Shown here in pieces: positions 1,997 through 15,168 of a stretch of 15,168 bases of DNA (the first letter of the stretch is position 1; each line of letters opens with the position of its first letter). The stretch is from Myxococcota bacterium (GTDB taxonomy: Bacteria > Myxococcota > SpSt-1050), in contig JBMFOP010000074.1 in the NCBI GenBank assembly GCA_049969675.1, positions 1 through 15,168 on the forward strand, given 5' to 3'. The notes beneath the pieces were generated by a model. That model worked only from the letters and a program-made list of their open reading frames with translations. It did not search any database and was not told where the DNA came from. The position numbers were made by a program, and so were the translations under genes.

Positions 1997-2830
1997 ATGG
2001 TACTGATTGATACACATCTACATCTGAGTTCACCAGACTACAAAGAAGATATTGAGGCTGTCATATCGCGGGCAAAGACCTCAAATGTAAAATACTTTAT
2101 TACCATTGGTTCTGGCTATGGGGCTGATAACTTTTTAAGTACCATAGAAATCTCTAAAAAGTATAATCTCTTCTTCGCACTGGGCGTTCATCCGCACGAC
2201 GCTGATATGGGATTGAAGATAGCGTCTCCAAACTCTATCTATTATGAGAAGACCGATGAGATTCTACAGAAGATTAGAGAGGCATCTAAAAACATAAGGA
2301 TGGTAGGTATTGGTGAGATTGGACTGGATTACTACTACGAATATTCCAATAAAAAGATTCAACGTGAGACATTTGCAAGATTTGTTGACTTTTCCTCATC
2401 AATTGATATGCCAGTAATAATTCATTCAAGGGATGCATTTTCAGATACATTAGATATTATCAAATCAAATCGGAATGGTACAAAGGGTGTCTTCCATTGC
2501 TTCTCTTACAACCTTGAGATGGCTAAAGCGGTTCTGGATATGGGCTTTTATATCTCCATACCCGGCATTGTGACTTTTAAGAAGTCAACAGATATGCAGG
2601 GAGTCACAAGATATATTCCAGAGGATAGGATTCTTGTTGAGACAGATGCACCATTTTTAGCCCCGGTCCCATATAGAGGTAAGAGGAACGAACCATCATT
2701 TATTGTGGAGACATATAAAACAGTTGCATCTATCAGAGGAACAACAGTGGAGGAGCTCTCACATATAGTATTGAAAAATGCGATCTCCTGTTTCAGAATA
2801 AGAAAGGAAGATTTAGTTGATACCGATTAA
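1997..2830 (+). CDS. tatD: TatD family metal-dependent hydrolase/DNase (YcfH-like)
   Basis: DTHLH, GVHPHD, IGEIGLDYY, IIHSRDA, HCFS, ETDAPFLAPVPYRGKRNEP motifs. Confidence 0.95.
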   Translation: MVLIDTHLHLSSPDYKEDIEAVISRAKTSNVKYFITIGSGYGADNFLSTIEISKKYNLFFALGVHPHDADMGLKIASPNSIYYEKTDEILQKIREASKNIRMVGIGEIGLDYYYEYSNKKIQRETFARFVDFSSSIDMPVIIHSRDAFSDTLDIIKSNRNGTKGVFHCFSYNLEMAKAVLDMGFYISIPGIVTFKKSTDMQGVTRYIPEDRILVETDAPFLAPVPYRGKRNEPSFIVETYKTVASIRGTTVEELSHIVLKNAISCFRIRKEDLVDTD

Positions 2831-5853: not shown

Positions 5854-6840
5854 ATGCTTATGGGTGTACCGAGGTATCTATATCTTACAATAACAAGAGA
5901 ATGTAATCTGAGATGCCAGCAGTGTCACTTCTGGACATATAAAGACCCGATTGATAGACTGAGTATCTCTGAATATTTAAATGTTATAGACCAGTTTTAT
6001 GAGATAAATCCAGAGGGAATTGTGGTGATAAATGGAGGTGAGCCGACGATCCATCGTGAGGAATTCTTTGAAATTACAAATTATATAAAAAGACTTAATA
6101 TGAGGTCTGCCTGTGTAACAAATGGCTACAACTTTGAGGATGATATTTGTAGACGAATGATAAAAGAGGGTCCCACATATCTGACCATCTCACTTGATAG
6201 TCATATCCCCGAGATACACAACAGATTGAGAGGGAGGGAAGATGCATTTGATAAGACTATATCTACAATAAAACGGCTGGTATATTATTTAAATGGTCAG
6301 AATGCATCAACTCTGGAACTCACCGTCACTACTATAATATTTGATGAAAATATTAAATACCTTCCTCAGTATATTGAATTTATAAGAGGGATTGGAGTCA
6401 GAGGGGTGCTCTTTCAGATAATAAATCCTACATTTGCACGCATTTCAAAGGAGGATAAATTTTTCAATGAACACTTCTTCAAAAATAAATCAGAGGCAAT
6501 AACTCATATTAAAATGGTATATGAAAAATACAAGAATGATTCATTTGTATTTCTTTCTGAGAGTGAGGTAAACTGGATCTGCTCTTATATTGAAAATCCA
6601 GATTTCTTATCTGAACCTGTCTGCGATTCACACAACAAGAATATATTTCTTGAACTAACAGGGGATATAGTGCTCTGTGCCCATATGCGAAATTTTAATA
6701 ATGGGGCCGCAATAGGAAATATTAGAGAGAAAAGACTGAAAGATATCCTCAATTCCGATATCGCACAAAAGATGAGAGGTATAATGGAGAGGTGCAGAAA
6801 GAACTGCGGACTCCTTGCCTGCCATAAGAAGGATACATAG
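5854..6840 (+). CDS. Radical SAM protein with C-terminal Twitch/SPASM-like cysteines, substrate unknown
   Basis: CNLRCQQC (CxxxCxxC), GGEP, VTNG, ISLDS..HN.LRG; C-terminal VC...GDIVLC...IGNI...CRKNCGLLAC. Confidence 0.9.
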   Translation: MLMGVPRYLYLTITRECNLRCQQCHFWTYKDPIDRLSISEYLNVIDQFYEINPEGIVVINGGEPTIHREEFFEITNYIKRLNMRSACVTNGYNFEDDICRRMIKEGPTYLTISLDSHIPEIHNRLRGREDAFDKTISTIKRLVYYLNGQNASTLELTVTTIIFDENIKYLPQYIEFIRGIGVRGVLFQIINPTFARISKEDKFFNEHFFKNKSEAITHIKMVYEKYKNDSFVFLSESEVNWICSYIENPDFLSEPVCDSHNKNIFLELTGDIVLCAHMRNFNNGAAIGNIREKRLKDILNSDIAQKMRGIMERCRKNCGLLACHKKDT

Positions 6841-6952: not shown

Positions 6953-6981
6953 TTGACTTTTTTACCTTAGTTGAATAAATT
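6953..6981 (+). promoter_or_regulatory. Probable sigma70 promoter for the outer-membrane protein gene
   Basis: TTGACT (6953-6958)-N17-TAAATT (6976-6981), then SD AGGAG (6993-6997) and ATG 7004. Confidence 0.55.
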
Positions 6982-7003
6982 ATATCTCATCCAGGAGATT
7001 GTG

Positions 7004-7840
7004 ATGAGAAGGTATATACTTACTTTTTGCTTTTTATTTTTTGCCTTAAATATTTATGCGGGGCAGAATGATTTGAATCTATCCGCTCTATCTTATTACG
7101 ACTATGTTCAGAGAAGGTATGTAGGAGATGATGAGGCATTCTATAAACTCGCCAATGAATTAGGTGTGGCTATTGCACCAAAACTCCTCTCTCCTGCAAG
7201 CACCCCTGGACAGGCGGGATTTGAGATAGGAGTTGAGACCTCGCTCACCCCTATTAACTCCACTGCAAATTACTGGAAGAAATCAGTTGAGGGTGGACAG
7301 CCATCAGATATGTTAACTGTTGGGACATTTCACCTGAGAAAAGGCTTTCCGCAGAGCTTTGAGGTAGGGACATCCGTCTCTTACATATTCCTTAGCCAGA
7401 TGTTTTTAGGTGGTTTAGAGGCAAAGTGGTCTCTGAATGAAGGATTTTATTATGTCCCGGATCTGGGAGTGAGATTTGCGGTAAACAGACTCTTTAATGC
7501 CAGAGACATTGACCTTACAACTGGAAATCTGGATGTAATACTCTCAAAGACCTTCGGAGTAGGTGGCTTTATGCAGATAACCCCATATTTTGCTTATAGC
7601 TATCTGGAGGTCATCACAAGTAGAAGAACTATAAATGCAACACCATGGGATTCCAGAGATAATGGCGGAGGGTCTGGCTACCCGGTGGATCAGTTTACAT
7701 TTGATTCAAAGTGGCAGTCAAATAACAGATTCTTCTTCGGACTCAAACTTAAGGGACATATAGTAACGACATATTATGAATTTGCACTTGTACCTGATGC
7801 AGTGAATTCTCACTCATTTAAGCTCGCAGCGGACTTTTAA
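7004..7840 (+). CDS. Exported hypothetical protein, probable outer-membrane beta-barrel
   Basis: Start reassigned to ATG 7004 (SD AGGAG 6 nt upstream). Signal peptide MRRYILTFCFLFFALNIYA; alternating amphipathic strands; C-terminal Phe (HSFKLAADF). Stop overlaps the convergent gene's stop (TTAA 7837-7840). Confidence 0.7.
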   Translation: MRRYILTFCFLFFALNIYAGQNDLNLSALSYYDYVQRRYVGDDEAFYKLANELGVAIAPKLLSPASTPGQAGFEIGVETSLTPINSTANYWKKSVEGGQPSDMLTVGTFHLRKGFPQSFEVGTSVSYIFLSQMFLGGLEAKWSLNEGFYYVPDLGVRFAVNRLFNARDIDLTTGNLDVILSKTFGVGGFMQITPYFAYSYLEVITSRRTINATPWDSRDNGGGSGYPVDQFTFDSKWQSNNRFFFGLKLKGHIVTTYYEFALVPDAVNSHSFKLAADF

Positions 7841-9771
7841 GAAGGTAGTCTCTCAATGGGCTTTAATTCAACTATTCCATATAGATTGATATAGTTTTTA
7901 AAGAGTCCTTCACAGACAGAATCAAATAGACATTTAGCACATACGGGAGATTTGGCTTTAAGCACATTTAACTTCCTCTCCCTCCAGCTAAATCTTTCAA
8001 TAAAGTCCGGGTCTGTTCTGGTTCTGAATATTGTAACAAATGTATCAAGGTCTCTCAATTCCCCGATATACTTACCAAGGAGTCTCTTATCTCTCAGGAT
8101 TCTCTCTGGAAGCAGACAGAAAGGTATATCTCCAATGGCGATATATATCTTCCCTTCTGTCTCATTCCAGAGAATAAGACTCTCAATATAATCCCTCACC
8201 TCACTTAGTTTTGGAATAATATTTTTATCAAAGACTACCTTATTCTCTGGCCTGATGAAGTTGAACCTGATGTCGTTGATGCCAATATCTTTGAAGAATC
8301 TGCAAAATTCAATCAGCTTATTGTAATTGAGTTTATGTATGCAGGAATTTAGCGAGACCCCGTGCTCAATCTTTCTCTTTTTGTTAATTTTTACAAGATT
8401 CTTTAATGCCTCAATCTTCTCTGAAAAGGCATTCTTCCTCCCATTTAAGAAGTTCTCCACACCCTCTTCATAAGAATGTATTGAAATCATAAATCTGGTA
8501 ACACCAGCCTTTACCAGTCGCTCTGTAAATTCAATGTCGGATAACCTCCTCCCATTTGTACAGAGGGCGATTCTCTCAAACCCTTTCCTCTTTGCAAATT
8601 CAATAATTTTAATTACATCCGGGTGGATGGTAATCTCTCCCCCCAGAAAACTCAGTGAGCGAAAGCCATCATTATATGCCTTTTCAATCTCATATATAAT
8701 CTTCTCATATTCAACAAATCTATTCTCCTCCCTTGAAATCACCCCGTTTGCACAGAAGATACAGGAGTTGTTACAGAGCTTCCCTATATTCACCTCGTAA
8801 TTTTTATCTTTATTAAGTTCTACTATATTGACCTGCTCACCTTCTCTCTTTCTCTTCCCAATCGGGAGTAGAGGGGTGTCGGAATTCTCTATATATCCTC
8901 TGTATATACCCCTGCATCTCCTCTTCTTACTACAGCTGTTACAAACTCCATTTACATAAGCCATATTCTGATAATCTACCCTGAAAAATTTCTTCTCAAA
9001 CGACTCTGACATGTAGAGTATATTCTCAGAATACATATCCCTATTATATCTCTCATAATCTGGAGATAGACAGTACGGTAGCCCATCATGATAGACTGAG
9101 ATATTGGGAACAAACTTCTCTATCTCTATAGCCTTCTTTATTACATCCGCCGTGCCTGCAAGTGGAGGAACTACTTCTTTATAATTAATATACGCATTCC
9201 CCTTGGGCTCAATTACAGACAACTTAATCCGTCTCACCCCGAGGAGTGCTAACTTACAGACTGAATCCACAATATCATTTAGATTATCTTTAACAATCGG
9301 GATATTTACAGTGAACATTATTGAGGGGATACTCTGGATATTCAATATTGCCTTAACGGATTCATTCAGCCCATCCACCTGCGTAACCTTTTTATAAATA
9401 CCTTTATCTGTGCTTACTAAGGACATATAGACATATCTCAAACCAGCATTATATAATTTTTGCAAAATTATTTTATCAGATAAAATTCTACCATTTGTAA
9501 TCAGACCAGAATACATCCTCCTTGAGAAGGTATACCTGAATAGATTCTCAATATCCTTTATTAATAGTGGTTCACCACCGGAGAAGAGGAGAATCTTTAC
9601 ACCGAGTCTTTTTGCTGAGTCAATCTTCCTCTTTATCTCAGAGATAGTAAGAGATTTTTTATCTCTGTATTCTGCACTGTGGCAGAAGATACAGTCGCTA
9701 TTACAAGAATATCCCCATTTTATTATTGCCTTTCTTAAATTATCAAACGCCTTACCTGAATCTCTTACCAC
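7837..9771 (-). CDS. Tandem double radical SAM protein, HxsC-like second maturase of the His-Xaa-Ser system
   Basis: CNSDCIFC (res 23; nt 9705-9682) and CNNSCIFC (res 333; nt 8775-8752), each followed by GGE, TNGR, PxC and CxxCx5CxG. GTG start overlaps the precursor's TGG-TAA; the frame is closed by TGA further upstream. Confidence 0.85.
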   Translation of the reverse strand: MVRDSGKAFDNLRKAIIKWGYSCNSDCIFCHSAEYRDKKSLTISEIKRKIDSAKRLGVKILLFSGGEPLLIKDIENLFRYTFSRRMYSGLITNGRILSDKIILQKLYNAGLRYVYMSLVSTDKGIYKKVTQVDGLNESVKAILNIQSIPSIMFTVNIPIVKDNLNDIVDSVCKLALLGVRRIKLSVIEPKGNAYINYKEVVPPLAGTADVIKKAIEIEKFVPNISVYHDGLPYCLSPDYERYNRDMYSENILYMSESFEKKFFRVDYQNMAYVNGVCNSCSKKRRCRGIYRGYIENSDTPLLPIGKRKREGEQVNIVELNKDKNYEVNIGKLCNNSCIFCANGVISREENRFVEYEKIIYEIEKAYNDGFRSLSFLGGEITIHPDVIKIIEFAKRKGFERIALCTNGRRLSDIEFTERLVKAGVTRFMISIHSYEEGVENFLNGRKNAFSEKIEALKNLVKINKKRKIEHGVSLNSCIHKLNYNKLIEFCRFFKDIGINDIRFNFIRPENKVVFDKNIIPKLSEVRDYIESLILWNETEGKIYIAIGDIPFCLLPERILRDKRLLGKYIGELRDLDTFVTIFRTRTDPDFIERFSWRERKLNVLKAKSPVCAKCLFDSVCEGLFKNYINLYGIVELKPIERLPS

Positions 9772-10136
9772 GAGCCATGTGAACCGTGAGAACCGTGAGA
9801 ACCGTGGGATGCGTGAGAACCATGGGATGCATGAGAACCATGGGATGCATGAGAGCCGTGAGAACCGTGAGAACCGTGAGAGCCGTGGGATGCGTGAGAG
9901 CAGTGAGCCACTTCATTTGAGGTTGTAGATGACGCCACAAGTGTTGCCGCATCAAAGTTGTCAGCACCATCAGGTGCAACATTGTGGTGGTGTGATGCAT
10001 CTACCGCCCCACCCAATAGCATCAGTGAGGTAGAGATTGCAAGTGACTTACCTCTTGTAATCTTTCCCTCTTCACTGTTCAAGAAGAGTTTTGCATCTCT
10101 CTTTAACTTTGATTTCTTATTGTTTTTCATCTTCAT
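9765..10136 (-). CDS. hxsA: His-Xaa-Ser repeat precursor peptide (HxsA-like)
   Basis: 123 aa; C-terminus HCS-HAS-(HGS)4-HAS-HGS-HAS-HGS-HAS-(HGS)4-W; lies between two radical SAM genes. Start is ATG 10136 or 10130 (purine-rich SD AGGAAGAGAGG). Confidence 0.9.
   Translation of the reverse strand: MKMKNNKKSKLKRDAKLFLNSEEGKITRGKSLAISTSLMLLGGAVDASHHHNVAPDGADNFDAATLVASSTTSNEVAHCSHASHGSHGSHGSHGSHASHGSHASHGSHASHGSHGSHGSHGSW
9771..9905 (-). repeat. 15 x 9-bp coding tandem repeat (CAY-GGY/GCA/TGC-TCN)
   Basis: 135 bp encoding 10 HGS, 4 HAS and 1 HCS; His and Ser codons vary only synonymously. Confidence 0.95.
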
Positions 10137-10145
10137 CCTCTCTTC

Positions 10146-11624
10146 CTACTCTCTTGACCTAAATATAGACCATTTTTTAAAAATTTGAAACAATTCATTT
10201 GAGGGGTTATGCATTTTATTAAAAAGGTAGCTCAAAATAGCCTTATTGATGTGGCATTTACTACTATGCTCCATAGAGCCGAAGATATCACCCTGCTCCA
10301 TATAATTGATAATGGGACATATCCCGCAGTAGGGCTTGAATGCACACCCCTGACAGTACGGATATGAATCCAAAAGTGATGCAACCAGTATAGATCGCGT
10401 GATTGGTGAGCCGACAAGGTCAACATAGAATTCTTTACCTGCACTCCCTAACAGGAACAGGTCCTCTCCCATCTCGTGCATCATCCTCGCCTCATCACAG
10501 GTAAATATCTTCCCATCATAGTTATAAGCCATCTGACCTATCCCCGCCCCACAGGGGGACCTGAGATCCAGAAAATTCGGGTCCCTATCCGTAATCATCT
10601 TGATTATAAAGAGTGCGGCCGTCCTCTCCTGAATCTCTATACCTTTCAGGTTGAGTTCTATTACATAGTCAAGAACCTCAAAGTAGAACCTTAAGAACTC
10701 CTCAGTGGTATAACCTATTTTTGACCAGGTCCTGGATGCGAATCCCAATGGATTCAATGGCCTGATATGGATTACTTTTATTCCATGCCTTACATATTCA
10801 TCCACAATCTCCCTGGCATGGCTGAGGCTCTCACGAGTGGTGGTCATCAGGGCATCCACATGATAGAGATTTGTGTCATATCCTCGCCTTTTGTATTCCT
10901 TGTTTATTTTTGTCATCCATTTGATTGTCTCTCTATAAGAACTGTTTTTGGAGAATGGTCTATTCTTATCGTGAATCTCCTGTGGTCCATCAAGCGATGT
11001 GCAGAATAATACTCCTCTATCAAGTAGATACTTTATCTTCTTTTCATCAATCCTGCTAAGATTGGTCACTATAGAGAAATAGAGTTCTTTATTTATCTCC
11101 TTATTCTTTTCAAGGGCATACTCTATAATGAATTTGACAATGTCAAAATTTACAAGTGGCTCACCACCCTGAAATTCAATGGTTATCTGCGGTGAGGTAG
11201 AGTCAAATATTGTATCAACAACCTTCTTCGCCGTCTCTTCTGTCATATCGTAACCGCTCTTATGCTCATCCCTTCTTGAGGCGTGGCAGTAAAGGCATTG
11301 CTGATTACATCTCAAAGTAGGAATTACTATGTGTAGATTTGGTCCTGCATTTAAGAATTTCATCTTCTTCCTGACCCTATCCACCATCTTCTCTTTATCA
11401 ATCCTGCCCGGGAATAGATTCTTCTCCACCAATATCCTGCCGAGCGATGAGTCCTCTTTGACCTCCCCCTTTGCAAGTCTATAAAACTCACCGATTGATA
11501 CAGTATGAAAATCTCCCGCATCATTTGTGAGGACAATTATCTCCCCTGTATCATAGAAGTAGGGGAAGCCCTCTTTTATTTTATATGATTTGAGCTGTGA
11601 ATTATTTGGTATCTTCTCTCTCAT
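10146..11624 (-). CDS. hxsB: His-Xaa-Ser system radical SAM/SPASM maturase HxsB
   Basis: LTNDAGDF, LHIVIPTLRCNQQCLYCHAS, IEFQGGEPL, DLRSPCGAG..AYNYDG.IFTCDEARM, CQGCAFKPYCGICP; features typical of TIGR03978-type proteins; adjacent to the HxS precursor. Confidence 0.9.
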   Translation of the reverse strand: MREKIPNNSQLKSYKIKEGFPYFYDTGEIIVLTNDAGDFHTVSIGEFYRLAKGEVKEDSSLGRILVEKNLFPGRIDKEKMVDRVRKKMKFLNAGPNLHIVIPTLRCNQQCLYCHASRRDEHKSGYDMTEETAKKVVDTIFDSTSPQITIEFQGGEPLVNFDIVKFIIEYALEKNKEINKELYFSIVTNLSRIDEKKIKYLLDRGVLFCTSLDGPQEIHDKNRPFSKNSSYRETIKWMTKINKEYKRRGYDTNLYHVDALMTTTRESLSHAREIVDEYVRHGIKVIHIRPLNPLGFASRTWSKIGYTTEEFLRFYFEVLDYVIELNLKGIEIQERTAALFIIKMITDRDPNFLDLRSPCGAGIGQMAYNYDGKIFTCDEARMMHEMGEDLFLLGSAGKEFYVDLVGSPITRSILVASLLDSYPYCQGCAFKPYCGICPIINYMEQGDIFGSMEHSSKCHINKAILSYLFNKMHNPSNELFQIFKKWSIFRSRE

Positions 11625-11821
11625 CTTCTCTTTTCCTCTATTGTATAAAGTAAAACCATACTCTCAAAATGATGCAATCTGTCGTCAAATGACTCTGGAA
11701 GTTCAATGATATACTCTTCTGATGTTACCTTTATTCTCTTTGCCTCCGAATTACAAAGCTCAGCGTATGCCTTCTTTATTGCTTCCTCTGAATAAAGTTT
11801 CCTATCAAATGTTACTTTCAT
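11621..11821 (-). CDS. hxsD: HxsD-like small protein of the His-Xaa-Ser system
   Basis: 66 aa starting MKVTFDRKLYSEEAIKKAY; strong SD GAGGTG; ATGA overlap with hxsB, the usual position for hxsD. Confidence 0.7.
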   Translation of the reverse strand: MKVTFDRKLYSEEAIKKAYAELCNSEAKRIKVTSEEYIIELPESFDDRLHHFESMVLLYTIEEKRR

Positions 11822-11832
11822 AAGATGTCACC

Positions 11833-11994
11833 TCAAAAGATTGTATAAATGAATGGGGCGGCGGCTGTCTGTCCTAATATAATTATTACCGCCGTCAATA
11901 AAAGGATTACTATTATCGGAATAAGCCACCACCTCTTTCTCTCTCTAAGAAAATTAAATAACTGAGACACTGTTGAGATATATCTCCCTTTCAT
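11833..11994 (-). CDS. DUF5989/SxtK-like small membrane protein (53 aa), missed by ORF track
   Basis: Manual translation MKGRYISTVSQLFNFLRERKRWWLIPIIVILLLTAVIIILGQTAAAPFIYTIF*; shows the family's F-x-x-ERK-x-WLxP, one TM helix and C-terminal APFIYTxF. Its TGA overlaps the hxsD SD. Confidence 0.85.
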   Translation of the reverse strand: MKGRYISTVSQLFNFLRERKRWWLIPIIVILLLTAVIIILGQTAAAPFIYTIF

Positions 11995-12032: not shown

Positions 12033-12101
12033 TATTTTTTTATTGCCATATTGCTTTTTATAAATAAAATTAACCTCAGTCACATCCTCTGGAGGTGCTA
12101 T

Positions 12102-12731
12102 ATGAAATCCCTGTTTTACCTATGCATTATTGGAATTATGATCTCATCCGGTTGCAACGACTCTGGAGACAATACACCTGATGCGGGAGGAATCACCACA
12201 GAAGCCACAGAGAAATATTTTGGGTTTGAAGATAAGAAGGTCATCTCATATGAGGGAACACAGATAGTAAACAATAATACCGCACCAGCCACCTTTGATA
12301 TAAGCATAGACATTGATACGGTGACACTCGGGCGAAAGACATTCAAGATGACATGGAGGTCTTCTATCGGTATTCCATTTGAGGAGTGGTTTGAGGTAAA
12401 GGACGATACAGTCTATAAGGTGGCTCAGAGATATGTTGAGAATAGTCTGGAGAAGAAGATTATCTTCTCAACACCAATAGTTTTTGGGAAGAATCCACTC
12501 AAAGACGGTGAGAACCTGAAGACTGAGACTGATGGAGGTACATATACTTATATTGTGAGCAACTATCAATACAGGACATATAAGAACGACTTTGGTGAGG
12601 TAAAACGGATAATAGGGAGTGAAAATGGCGCCTCAAACGAATATTATCTTAAAGAGAACGAGGGGTTTGCAGGGTTTAAGTTTAATAATCACCCCGCCCT
12701 ATTTACTATTGAGGTAGAGAAGAAGAAATAG
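12102..12731 (+). CDS. Hypothetical lipoprotein
   Basis: Start reassigned to ATG 12102 after SD GGAGGT; MKSLFYLCIIGIMISSG-C lipobox-like signal, low-complexity linker (NDSGDNTPDAGG), beta-rich body. Confidence 0.75.
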   Translation: MKSLFYLCIIGIMISSGCNDSGDNTPDAGGITTEATEKYFGFEDKKVISYEGTQIVNNNTAPATFDISIDIDTVTLGRKTFKMTWRSSIGIPFEEWFEVKDDTVYKVAQRYVENSLEKKIIFSTPIVFGKNPLKDGENLKTETDGGTYTYIVSNYQYRTYKNDFGEVKRIIGSENGASNEYYLKENEGFAGFKFNNHPALFTIEVEKKK

Positions 12732-12734
12732 AGT

Positions 12735-14324
12735 ATGCCCATAAATTCCGATATACTGATTATTGGAGGGGGAGTAGCAGGTCTTACCCTTGCATTAAGA
12801 CTCAGTAAGAGATATCAAATTTCTATTCTATGCAAAGGGAAACTTGAGGATTCAGCCTCGTCTGTTGCACAGGGCGGTATTGCAGCGGTCTTTGATAGAG
12901 AGGATTCATTTGAAGACCATATCAGAGATACCCTCATGACTGGCGAAGGACTTTCCAATTTAGAGGTGGTAAGGTTGTGTGTAGGTAAAGGACCGGAGTT
13001 AATAAAATGGCTTGAAAGTCTCGGGGCTGAATTTTCCCGAAAAGAGAATTCAAATGAATTTGATCTGGGACTTGAAGGGGGTCATTCTCACAGAAGAATT
13101 GTACATGCAAAGGATATCTCCGGAAGAGAGGTAATCAGGGCACTTGCAAAAGAGGTGAGAGGGAGAGAGAACATCAGAATTTTTGAAAATCACTTTGCAA
13201 TAGACCTCATATCTACTCTAAGACTCGGGATTTCAAATAAAAATTCTATACTTGGTGTGTATGTTTTGAATCAAAAGAGCGGTATTATTGAGACCTTCTT
13301 TGCAAATAGTGTAGTGCTGGCAACCGGTGGCGCGGGCAAGATATATCTCTATACCTCAAATCCGGATATCTCAACCGGTGATGGAATAGCAATGGCTTAC
13401 AGGGCCGGTGCAGTAATTGAGAATCTGGAATTTGTGCAGTTTCATCCTACCTGTCTCTATCATCCTGATGCAAAATCATTCCTGATCTCTGAGGCACTAA
13501 GAGGAGAAGGTGGAAGACTTTTAAGACCGGATGGTTCTCCATTTATGCACCTTTATCATCCAGAGAGAGAGCTTGCCCCAAGGGATATAGTGGCACGTTC
13601 AATAGACTTTGAGATGAAGAAGAACGGATATGACTTTGTATTACTTGATATGACACATCTTGGTAGTAAGTTCCTGAAGAAGAGATTCCCTTCTATATAT
13701 CAGAGGTGCCTTGACTTTGGATTTGATATGGCTGCAAGGCCTATCCCTGTTGTCCCCGCCGCTCACTATTTTTGTGGTGGTGTAAAGGTTGATATCTTTG
13801 GAAGAACCAATATCGGTTCGCTATTTGCCATAGGTGAGGTCTCTTCCACAGGACTTCACGGTGCAAACAGACTTGCCTCAAATTCGCTTCTGGAGGGCCT
13901 TGTATTCGGCAATCAGGTGGCAGAGTATCTAAATCTACATCCACCTGAAAAGGTATCAAAGCACAAGGTACCGGACTGGGACTATGGTGATGCGGTTGAG
14001 CCGGATGAGGCGGTGGTTGTCAGCCAGAACTGGGACGAGATAAGAAGGTTGATGTGGAATTATGTAGGGATTGTACGATCAAATAAGAGGTTGAGGAGGG
14101 CGTTGAGGAGAATAAATCTACTAAAAAAGGAGATAAATGAATATTACTGGAATTTCAGAGTTACAAAAGACCTTCTGGAGTTGAGAAATATAGCGATTGT
14201 GGCTGAGCTCGTCATAAGGTCTGCGATAAGAAGAAAGGAGAGCAGAGGGCTGCATTATACAATTGATTATCCAGAGAAAGACGATAAATTTGCAAAGCCA
14301 ACAAGGATAATAAGAAAACTATAA
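12735..14324 (+). CDS. nadB: L-aspartate oxidase
   Basis: IIGGGVAG, AQGGIAAV, EGGHSHRRIVHA, QFHPT, LISEALRGEG, ELAPRDIVAR, HYFCGG, GLHGANRLASNSLLE, ESRGLHY motifs. Confidence 0.96.
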   Translation: MPINSDILIIGGGVAGLTLALRLSKRYQISILCKGKLEDSASSVAQGGIAAVFDREDSFEDHIRDTLMTGEGLSNLEVVRLCVGKGPELIKWLESLGAEFSRKENSNEFDLGLEGGHSHRRIVHAKDISGREVIRALAKEVRGRENIRIFENHFAIDLISTLRLGISNKNSILGVYVLNQKSGIIETFFANSVVLATGGAGKIYLYTSNPDISTGDGIAMAYRAGAVIENLEFVQFHPTCLYHPDAKSFLISEALRGEGGRLLRPDGSPFMHLYHPERELAPRDIVARSIDFEMKKNGYDFVLLDMTHLGSKFLKKRFPSIYQRCLDFGFDMAARPIPVVPAAHYFCGGVKVDIFGRTNIGSLFAIGEVSSTGLHGANRLASNSLLEGLVFGNQVAEYLNLHPPEKVSKHKVPDWDYGDAVEPDEAVVVSQNWDEIRRLMWNYVGIVRSNKRLRRALRRINLLKKEINEYYWNFRVTKDLLELRNIAIVAELVIRSAIRRKESRGLHYTIDYPEKDDKFAKPTRIIRKL

Positions 14325-14649: not shown

Positions 14650-15039
14650 ATGGGATTGCTGGATTTTTTGACAGGTGGACCCAAGAAGGACCCTGTGCAT
14701 ATTACAGATGAGAACTTTGAAGAAGAGGTTCTCAAATCAGAACTCCCTGTTGTACTTGATGCGTGGGGACCGGATTGCCCCTGGTGTATGAAGATGGTCC
14801 CAACTATAAGGATCCTTACAGCGAGATATGACGGCAAAATAAAGGTTGGTGAGTTTAATGTGGCAGAGGCAAAGAACATTGCCCGTAGATTTGGCATTCG
14901 TGGTACCCCCACTATTCTATTCCTTAAGAAGGGTGTGACCGTCGCCCGCTTCTCTGGCTATCAACCAGAACAACTCCTTGAGGAGGCGATACAGGAAAAA
15001 TTCTCAGATTACCTCTCAGATGCCGCCAATACCAGATAA
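14650..15039 (+). CDS. Thioredoxin family protein with CPWC active site
   Basis: [29 protein letters not shown], cis-Pro motif GIRGTPT; SD GGAGG. Confidence 0.9.
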
Positions 15040-15168
15040 AATCAGGTCAGTCTACATTGATAAGATAGAACATATCTATAATCTAACACAATCGGGGAAA
15101 TATTACTTCTTATCCCGACCGAGGAGGTTTGGGAAGTCTCTGTTGATAGATACAATCCATTGCCTCTT
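15020..15168 (+). pseudogene. 5' fragment of an AAA-ATPase-like (PF09820-type) gene, N-terminus apparently damaged; runs off right edge
   Basis: Manual translation [57 protein letters not shown] Walker A signature. Lacks the usual LPIGIQxF start and an SD. Confidence 0.6.

Follow-up and report, generated by a model that had tools for sequence, protein, structure and literature searches.

The contig JBMFOP010000074.1 of a Myxococcota bacterium (assembly GCA_049969675.1), hereafter the window, was analysed over its entire 15,168 nucleotides (nt) and carries on its minus strand a five-gene operon that appears to be a variant of the His-Xaa-Ser (HXS) system, a radical S-adenosylmethionine (SAM) peptide modification system whose chemistry and function we infer here. 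The window corresponds to contig C74 of our genome G000, which has a size of 3.05 Mb and a GC content of 39%. From head to tail, the operon encodes a micropeptide of the DUF5989 family, a 66-amino-acid (66-aa) protein, the maturase HxsB, the repeat-containing precursor HxsA4, and a double enzyme built of two HxsC-like radical SAM domains, termed Ca and Cb. Comparison with other genomes suggests that this operon is probably the condensed core of a larger gene set, the other parts of which are dispersed over the genome.

A search with the Hxs family models, proposed in the first-pass annotation, supported its assignment of the locus to the HXS systems: HxsB scores 537.9 bits on TIGR03978 (cut-off 370) and the precursor scores 69.6 bits on NF038313 (HxsA4, cut-off 55). 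Not all genes are covered by existing models: the 66-aa protein and the double enzyme fall below cut-off, and no gene of the operon reaches the HxsC or HxsD models, in agreement with the earlier proposal of a distinct non-canonical subtype. The described layout was also confirmed, comprising five tightly coupled minus-strand open reading frames (ORFs), one repeat peptide and three CxxxCxxC motifs (at C106 of HxsB, and C23 and C333 of the double enzyme). Four junctions connect the genes: a GAGGTG motif overlapping the stop codon of the DUF5989 gene with an 11-nt gap to the 66-aa gene, an ATGA overlap between the latter and hxsB, a 9-nt gap between hxsB and hxsA4, and a GTGGTAA overlap between hxsA4 and the double enzyme gene. 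This tight coupling suggests that the five genes are co-transcribed; a promoter scan gave a result at chance level (15 sites versus 14.4 expected). In the suggested comparison of hxsB neighbourhoods, the identical five-gene order was found in all four genomes of the genus (G000–G003) and in the metagenome loci L022–L024, which argues against a chance arrangement, and larger arrays were observed in other relatives.

The genome G000 encodes eight HxsC-like domains, each scoring at least 182 bits, with the next candidate at 130 bits. Six of them are located outside the operon, on contigs C16, C20, C31 (two domains), C61 and C132; thus, the extra radical SAM domain noted previously is present, but its count was much understated. 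A methyltransferase is encoded on contig C31 and nitrogenase-like D/K homologues (PF00148) on contig C1, whereas a NifH-like gene (G000:C75:1991-2839, locus L151; PF00142, 281 bits) is unlinked to the D/K pair. In the relatives, the surroundings of hxsA and hxsB hold numerous HxsC-like genes, together with Ca-methyltransferase fusions, radical SAM genes of the B12 type and genes resembling nitrogenase components, and the metagenome contigs L036, L062 and L066 contain similar arrays. For example, at least eight HxsC-like genes occur within 20 kb in G215; Cb, DUF5989, carbamoyltransferase and nitrogenase-like genes are all found within about 35 kb of hxsB in G045; and NifH- and NifD/K-like genes separate hxsB from hxsA in G016. 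In the phylogenetic tree, the six scattered domains of G000 pair with members of such single-contig arrays (e.g., L062, L066 and L120). In genome G004 (L016:6484-18702), the hxsB-hxsA-Ca genes are directly surrounded by two pairs of nitrogenase-like D/K genes, one NifH-like gene and one iron-alcohol-dehydrogenase-like gene. An 870-aa DUF483 protein (G000:C20:32061-34673) adjoins an HxsC-like gene, and the same domain turns up again in the L035, L036, L039 and L066 arrays.

The co-occurrence of these genes was assessed in 251 genomes, which include kin and are not independent, the counts resting on a few lineages (about 7 families). HxsB was detected above cut-off in 40 genomes. Fifteen of these are canonical, all from family f10 and each scoring at least 588 bits; five of their loci were read, and the other ten were assigned from their HxsB score and their family. 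In all five loci a canonical-clade HxsC follows hxsB, and four of them encode an HRSH-type protein that is extended at its C-terminus. The HxsB subtype of the window was found in 25 genomes (424–552 bits), including two, G055 and G070, that were assigned without a view of their peptide; it is nearly fixed in the genus (4/4) and in family f4 (14/17). Among the 25 subtype genomes, the enzyme of the type encoded on contig C16 (C16-type) is present in 24, the Ca orthologue in 22, the nitrogenase-like subunit in 19 and Cb in 17, whereas each of the four is absent from all 15 canonical and all 211 other genomes, as judged by single-protein queries, which can miss distant orthologues. These counts include sporadic carriers in families mostly devoid of the system (for the C16-type enzyme, 2/95 genomes in f10 and 2/33 in f15); these four genomes have the C16-type enzyme (4/4) and mostly Ca (3/4), with Cb and the nitrogenase-like subunit absent. 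The nitrogenase-like part is not obligatory, since six subtype genomes gave no match. That the A4-type set stays together even where its genes are scattered points to one pathway rather than to chance clustering.

The double enzyme scores 186 bits on the HxsC4 model NF038332 (cut-off 500) and 105.5 bits on the HxsC model TIGR03977 (cut-off 267.9). Taken separately, its halves reach 59.6 and 59 bits on TIGR03977, and 62 (Ca) and 133 (Cb) bits on NF038332, whereas a canonical control, L125, scores 397.8 bits on TIGR03977. Both halves contain a full complement of cysteines (C23/27/30, C234 and C277/280/286 in Ca; C333/337/340, C552 and C611/614/620 in Cb), and the AlphaFold2 model shows two complete barrels (mean predicted local distance difference test score, pLDDT, of 88.8) with an auxiliary cysteine set in each half. 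The halves are only 25% identical and fall into separate clades of a FastTree phylogeny of 159 HxsC-like domains (209 candidates minus 50 that were duplicates or scored below 40 bits), with support values of 0.995 for Ca and 0.98 for Cb; canonical HxsC forms a third clade nested in the same enzyme radiation. This divergence led us to reject a recent tandem duplication and suggests instead that the enzyme is a fusion of two old subfamilies. Among the 150 best Ca representatives, examined with our own score thresholds, 59 have a C-terminal class I methyltransferase-like domain, 50 are free, one is a Ca-Cb fusion and one is a Cb-Ca fusion. By sequence comparison, the Ca-Cb fusion thus appears to be a local arrangement, and Ca, Cb and the 66-aa protein seem to represent subfamilies without an existing model. 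Several larger proteins of about 940–1400 aa (P0020, P0021, P0030, P0032, P0046 and P0074) contain several HxsC-like domains each, domain shuffling being common in the family.

A Foldseek search with the double enzyme returned generic radical SAM folds with identities of at most 25%, the nearest solved folds being viperin, BlsE and MoaA, which act on small molecules. The identity of the enzyme as a viperin was rejected as a generic likeness (102 bits on PADLOC pVip; 86.5 bits on NF038283, cut-off 180). These small-molecule folds fit an alternative scenario with two co-travelling pathways, in which HxsA, HxsB and HxsD would produce a peptide and the HxsC-like and nitrogenase-like enzymes a cofactor such as a tetrapyrrole, with the double enzyme partly engaged there. 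Tetrapyrrole reduction has been proposed for the group VI nitrogenase paralogs found beside radical SAM arrays (Meheust et al., 10.1101/765248), genes for glycosyltransferases, carbamoyltransferases and radical SAM enzymes of the B12 type occur in the clusters, and several subtype genomes lack Cb and the nitrogenase-like genes. However, the four partners tested never occur without the HxsB subtype of the window (0/226 each), Ca adjoins hxsA in most loci read, and canonical HxsC belongs to the same radiation, which makes this scenario unlikely in our view.

The nitrogenase-like family of group VI has no characterised member (PMC13474568, Chem Rev 2026). In its published loci, as in the arrays described here, numerous radical SAM genes lie next to NifH/D/K-like genes, and such loci are reported in Myxococcales too (10.1101/765248, PMC13474568), whereas the nitrogenase-like genes of G000 are unlinked, co-occur only with the HxsB subtype of the window, and were assigned by family match only. 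Text searches of the accessible portions of both papers gave no mention of His-Xaa or Hxs, nor of 'peptide' in 10.1101/765248.

The HxsA4 precursor consists of a basic N-terminal leader with the sequence F18-L-N-S-E-E-G24, a hydrophobic stretch at residues 33–45, a spacer, and a core of 15 contiguous H-x-S triplets (HGS or HAS, H78–S122) followed by a terminal tryptophan, W123. Across the 15 units, the His and Ser codons differ at the third base but never at the first two, which argues that this is the coding frame of the repeat. The peptide ends at the repeat, with no C-terminal domain; only a weak collagen-like match was obtained with Pfam, and none with TIGR03979. The HxsA4 model was passed in 22 of the 251 genomes, 21 within the subtype and one (G033) outside. 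Further HxS runs at C1:87076 and C5:7752 were rejected as additional precursors, being opposite-strand readings of other genes. In G003 (L002:4896-5286), hxsA goes out of frame inside the repeat, reflecting either an assembly error or a broken gene, and G149 has two tandem HxsA4 precursors (G149:C104:65353-66642).

An alignment of 22 precursors revealed distinct leader classes. Ten precursors, including those of the window, the genus, G004, L036, L062 and L066, have an FLxx[ED]G motif before the hydrophobic stretch, which presumably resembles the cleavage sites of Flp prepilins. Another ten, comprising all f4 peptides (10/10), instead possess the motif TRRx[FLVA][LV], which we take to match the twin-arginine consensus; the remaining two have neither motif. 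The peptide of the window has TRGKSL at this place and no twin-arginine motif, and TatC is present in the genome. The operon lacks peptidase and exporter genes, as had been observed, but a candidate leader peptidase similar to A24 prepilin peptidases is encoded elsewhere in G000, on contig C132. In G000, G002 and G004, homologues with two Asp motifs come after an HxsC-like gene; in L036 an A24-like gene heads the hxsD-hxsD'-hxsB-hxsA run, and in L035 it lies among radical SAM genes. The ED and GDAK motifs are conserved in these proteins, the Pfam A24 scores of which are 23.3 (the copy of G000) and 31.9 bits against a cut-off of 26.5. The A24-like gene was detected in four of 34 genomes queried (G000, G002, G003 and G004), also in G001, and in none of 14 f4 genomes, although the matches are weak (E-values 1e-6 to 1e-8) and the lack of matches in f4 may be a matter of sensitivity. 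The protease thus covaries with the FLxxEEG leader, with no match in relatives that have the twin-arginine leader. We regard prepilin-type processing of HxsA4 as a lead rather than a result.

Besides passing TIGR03978, HxsB has C-terminal cysteines at positions 358–457, and its nearest solved sequence is 5WGG (E-value 1.9e-21); its scores on cyclophane-synthase models are far under cut-off (YhhB, 50 vs 445; GrrM/OscB, 47 vs 310). The 66-aa gene, previously annotated as hxsD, has no match to the HxsD model TIGR03976, and its sole NCBIfam match is to NF038315 (HxsD_rel, 18 bits, cut-off 41). A profile comparison with hxsB-adjacent HxsD_rel proteins, one of which passes NF038315, gave an E-value of 0.003 and a probability of 10%, and the 66-aa protein shares its locus position with the members passing that model. 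Its AlphaFold2 model (pLDDT 92.7) has a beta-alpha-beta-beta-alpha fold, for which fold searches retrieved common alpha/beta arrangements only (best Z 5.9, no Foldseek E-value of 0.001 or below). These features favour an HxsD-like paralog over HxsD itself. An HxsD passing TIGR03976 (57.3 bits, cut-off 50) is encoded on contig C43 of G000, unlinked to the operon, and an HxsD was also found in all four relatives tested, above cut-off in three; the genome thus appears to encode two HxsD-family proteins, the canonical one off-operon. In most f4 loci read (L018:4361-8017, L107, L108, L109, L112, L113, L116 and L020), a gene for a 1200-aa Ig-like lipoprotein lies upstream of hxsD-hxsD'-hxsB.

The 53-aa ORF at the head of the operon matches PF19451 (DUF5989; 73.2 bits, cut-off 27) and has a hydrophobic segment at residues 23–41 (mean Kyte-Doolittle hydropathy 3.0). 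DUF5989 was found in 73 of the 251 genomes, namely 17/25 subtype, 0/15 canonical and 56/211 others. It adjoins hxsB in all four genus genomes and lies within 10 kb of it in none of the 13 outside genomes that carry both, which speaks against the dedicated membrane component proposed earlier; in three of the outside genomes it is on the hxsB contig at distances of 20 (G045), 50 and 89 kb, and in G229 it is 3 kb from hxsA4. In four of six foreign contexts read, a carbamoyltransferase lies at most 1 kb from DUF5989, in one case recognised by motif only. Since carbamoyltransferases recur in large Hxs clusters, DUF5989 is most plausibly a remnant of a carbamoyltransferase module and, from its genomic contexts, a genus-specific passenger of the operon; a role in the pathway is possible. 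A 131-aa gene preceding the carbamoyltransferase on contig C25 had no match in Pfam or NCBIfam, and an SxtJ label for it was not confirmed.

These data also bear on whether the five genes form a self-contained operon for a peptide that is made by ribosomes and modified after translation (a RiPP), for which DUF5989, the 66-aa protein, HxsB and the double enzyme would suffice. The tight coupling, the gene order kept in 4/4 genus genomes, the higher frequency of DUF5989 in the subtype (17/25) than in other genomes (56/226), and its proximity to the system in G229 and G045 are consistent with such a unit. We nevertheless consider it improbable, because HxsD, which is essential in E. coli, is encoded on another contig, DUF5989 is missing in 8/25 subtype genomes and occurs in 56 genomes without HxsB above cut-off, the Ca-Cb fusion represents one of 150 architectures, and G004 retains the system without Cb.

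The mature product of HXS systems had been described as uncharacterised, which is outdated for the canonical system: E. coli HxsDBCA is an anti-phage system that blocks phage DNA entry and stops 110 of 113 phages (Li et al. 2026, PMC13128918). In the same work, E. coli HxsA was found to undergo cleavage, to acquire +8 Da (+C/-4H) at an SHRSS motif and to end up in the periplasm; HxsA by itself is reported to be insoluble, HxsC was seen to bind HxsD, and 99.6% of the surveyed systems keep the gene order D-B-C-A. The system of the window shares with the canonical one (TIGR03976-03979) an HxsB orthologue, an HxsD family protein, HxsC-like domains with a second cysteine motif, an HxS repeat protein with an N-terminal hydrophobic leader, and an operon without peptidase or exporter. 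In contrast to canonical HxsA, with its five repeats and peptidoglycan-binding domain (PMC13128918), the peptide of the window has 15 C-terminal HGS/HAS triplets and a tryptophan; canonical HxsC is absent, and the genome has eight HxsC-like domains; the order is D'-B-A-C; and the system is lineage-fixed and has methyltransferase, A24-like and nitrogenase-like partners. Judged by these comparisons, the locus lacks several defining features of canonical HXS. An ordinary HXS anti-phage function with dispensable extra paralogs would agree with the shared HxsB, HxsD and HxS repeats and with the breadth of E. coli HXS, but the absence of an HxsC at the TIGR03977 level and of a C-terminal anchor domain, the altered gene order, and the lineage-fixed spread, set against patchy HxsB matches in f10 (26/95), render it very unlikely.

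Among the NCBIfam families compared by model names and scores only, the peptide passes HxsA4, whereas the highest scores of the 66-aa protein (on HxsD_rel) and of the double enzyme (on HxsC4) remain under cut-off. In the canonical f10 loci L123-L126, HxsA is of the HRSH type, in one case with a weak C-terminal PEGA match, and no peptidoglycan-binding Pfam domain was found in three f10 canonical HxsA proteins scanned. HxsB and HxsC are mentioned merely as sequence clusters in the accessible text of PMC9062424. A literature search, with most subscription journals outside its coverage and with the supplements of PMC13128918 and the figures of Meheust et al. left unopened, found no paper dealing with HxsA4 or HxsC4, with DUF5989, or with an Hxs system expanded in this way.

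Based on these observations, we propose the following model. HxsB, with its RRE-type N-terminus and SPASM domain, would engage the HxsA4 leader, after which the (His-Gly/Ala-Ser)15-Trp core would be modified repeatedly by HxsB together with the HxsC-like enzymes, with HxsD and the HxsD-like protein holding these enzymes. By analogy, the likeliest chemistry would be three-residue His-to-Ser cross-links or desaturations, plus carbon addition. The former are suggested by the triceptides (HaaB, HtkB, YhhB; PMC11499958), an analogy in chemistry only, where radical SAM enzymes act on three-residue His-X-X motifs to form a HisC2-to-Cbeta cross-link; the latter is suggested by the mass shift of E. coli HxsA (PMC13128918) and the frequent Ca-methyltransferase fusion. 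An A24-type protease would then cut after Gly24 and the hydrophobic stretch may carry the product to the cell envelope. In its full form, the model would have HxsA4 as a prepilin-like envelope peptide with A24 leader removal at FLNSEEG, the (His-Gly-Ser)15-Trp tail of which is turned into a cross-linked surface polymer by about nine radical SAM domains, a methyltransferase and a nitrogenase-like reductase; we put this forward tentatively, as a possibility somewhat on the unlikely side. Within the model, an envelope-level protective job, such as blocking phage DNA entry, may be the most likely function, at a little less than an even chance, with a structural or metal-binding surface role as the main alternative; the anti-phage role would rest on homology.

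Several observations weigh against this model. The near-fixation in the lineage (4/4 and 14/17) and the synteny with nadB fit housekeeping better than a defence island, as does the lack of defence genes in the window besides generic viperin and TatD likeness, and the precursor has no peptidoglycan-binding domain, which E. coli HxsA needs (PMC13128918). The A24-like copy of G000 scores under cut-off and has no standard start codon before its first Asp motif, while the residues following Gly24 (KITRGK, +1 to +6) are charged, unlike those of typical pilins. Finally, the six subtype genomes without a nitrogenase-like match, the kinship of genomes from about 7 families, and the classing of 10/15 'canonical' genomes by HxsB score and family limit the co-occurrence argument. 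The coordinates of the operon genes are given in Table 1.

Table 1. Genes of the HXS-type operon and the two halves of the double enzyme, with positions in the window
Feature	Position	Strand	Remarks
DUF5989 single-helix membrane micropeptide, 53 aa	11833..11994	-	head of operon; Pfam PF19451
HxsD-like small protein, 66 aa, putative HxsD paralog	11621..11821	-	NF038315 HxsD_rel match under cut-off
HxsB radical SAM/SPASM maturase, 492 aa	10146..11624	-	TIGR03978
HxsA4 precursor, 123 aa	9765..10136	-	NF038313
Double enzyme, 644 aa, GTG start	7837..9771	-	two HxsC-like radical SAM domains
Ca half (N-terminal) of double enzyme	8848..9771	-	HxsC-like radical SAM, four-Cys auxiliary motif
Cb half (C-terminal) of double enzyme	7837..8847	-	second intact HxsC-like radical SAM domain

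A divergent lipoprotein-like gene (12051-14324, plus strand) and nadB flank the operon in the relatives L001, L002, L013 and L024, which constitutes a stable housekeeping address. On the other side, a convergent gene for a secreted protein (6971-7840, plus strand), conserved in the genus, overlaps the stop codon of the double enzyme with its own (TTAA). This protein has no match in Pfam or NCBIfam; its atlas clusters contain Myxococcota hypothetical proteins, with a lead towards a beta-barrel (DUF6588 on 21% of one cluster). Further away, an orphan radical SAM/SPASM gene (5854-6840, plus strand) is below all cut-offs, lies outside the HxsC-like set (123 bits) and is not at that place in L001 or L013. 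The window also contains an ordinary TatD family nuclease gene (1997-2830, plus strand; TIGR00010, 267 vs 206; QatD below cut-off) and a partial ORF with a P-loop-like motif (14978-15168, plus strand) that is ended by the contig edge.

So far, only the four-gene HXS has been studied. The new elements here are the dispersed form of the system, the genome-level co-occurrence counts and the covariation of leader and protease, which name a candidate leader peptidase together with a predicted cut site. For heterologous work, the five-gene core offers a practical entry point, being compact and low in GC, and the locus provides a genome-level test of the link between A4-type Hxs and nitrogenase-like proteins. 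If the proposed model is true, the nitrogenase-like enzyme would act in a peptide pathway and not on a tetrapyrrole, and the lineages would have swapped export routes, prepilin-type versus Tat, for one product.

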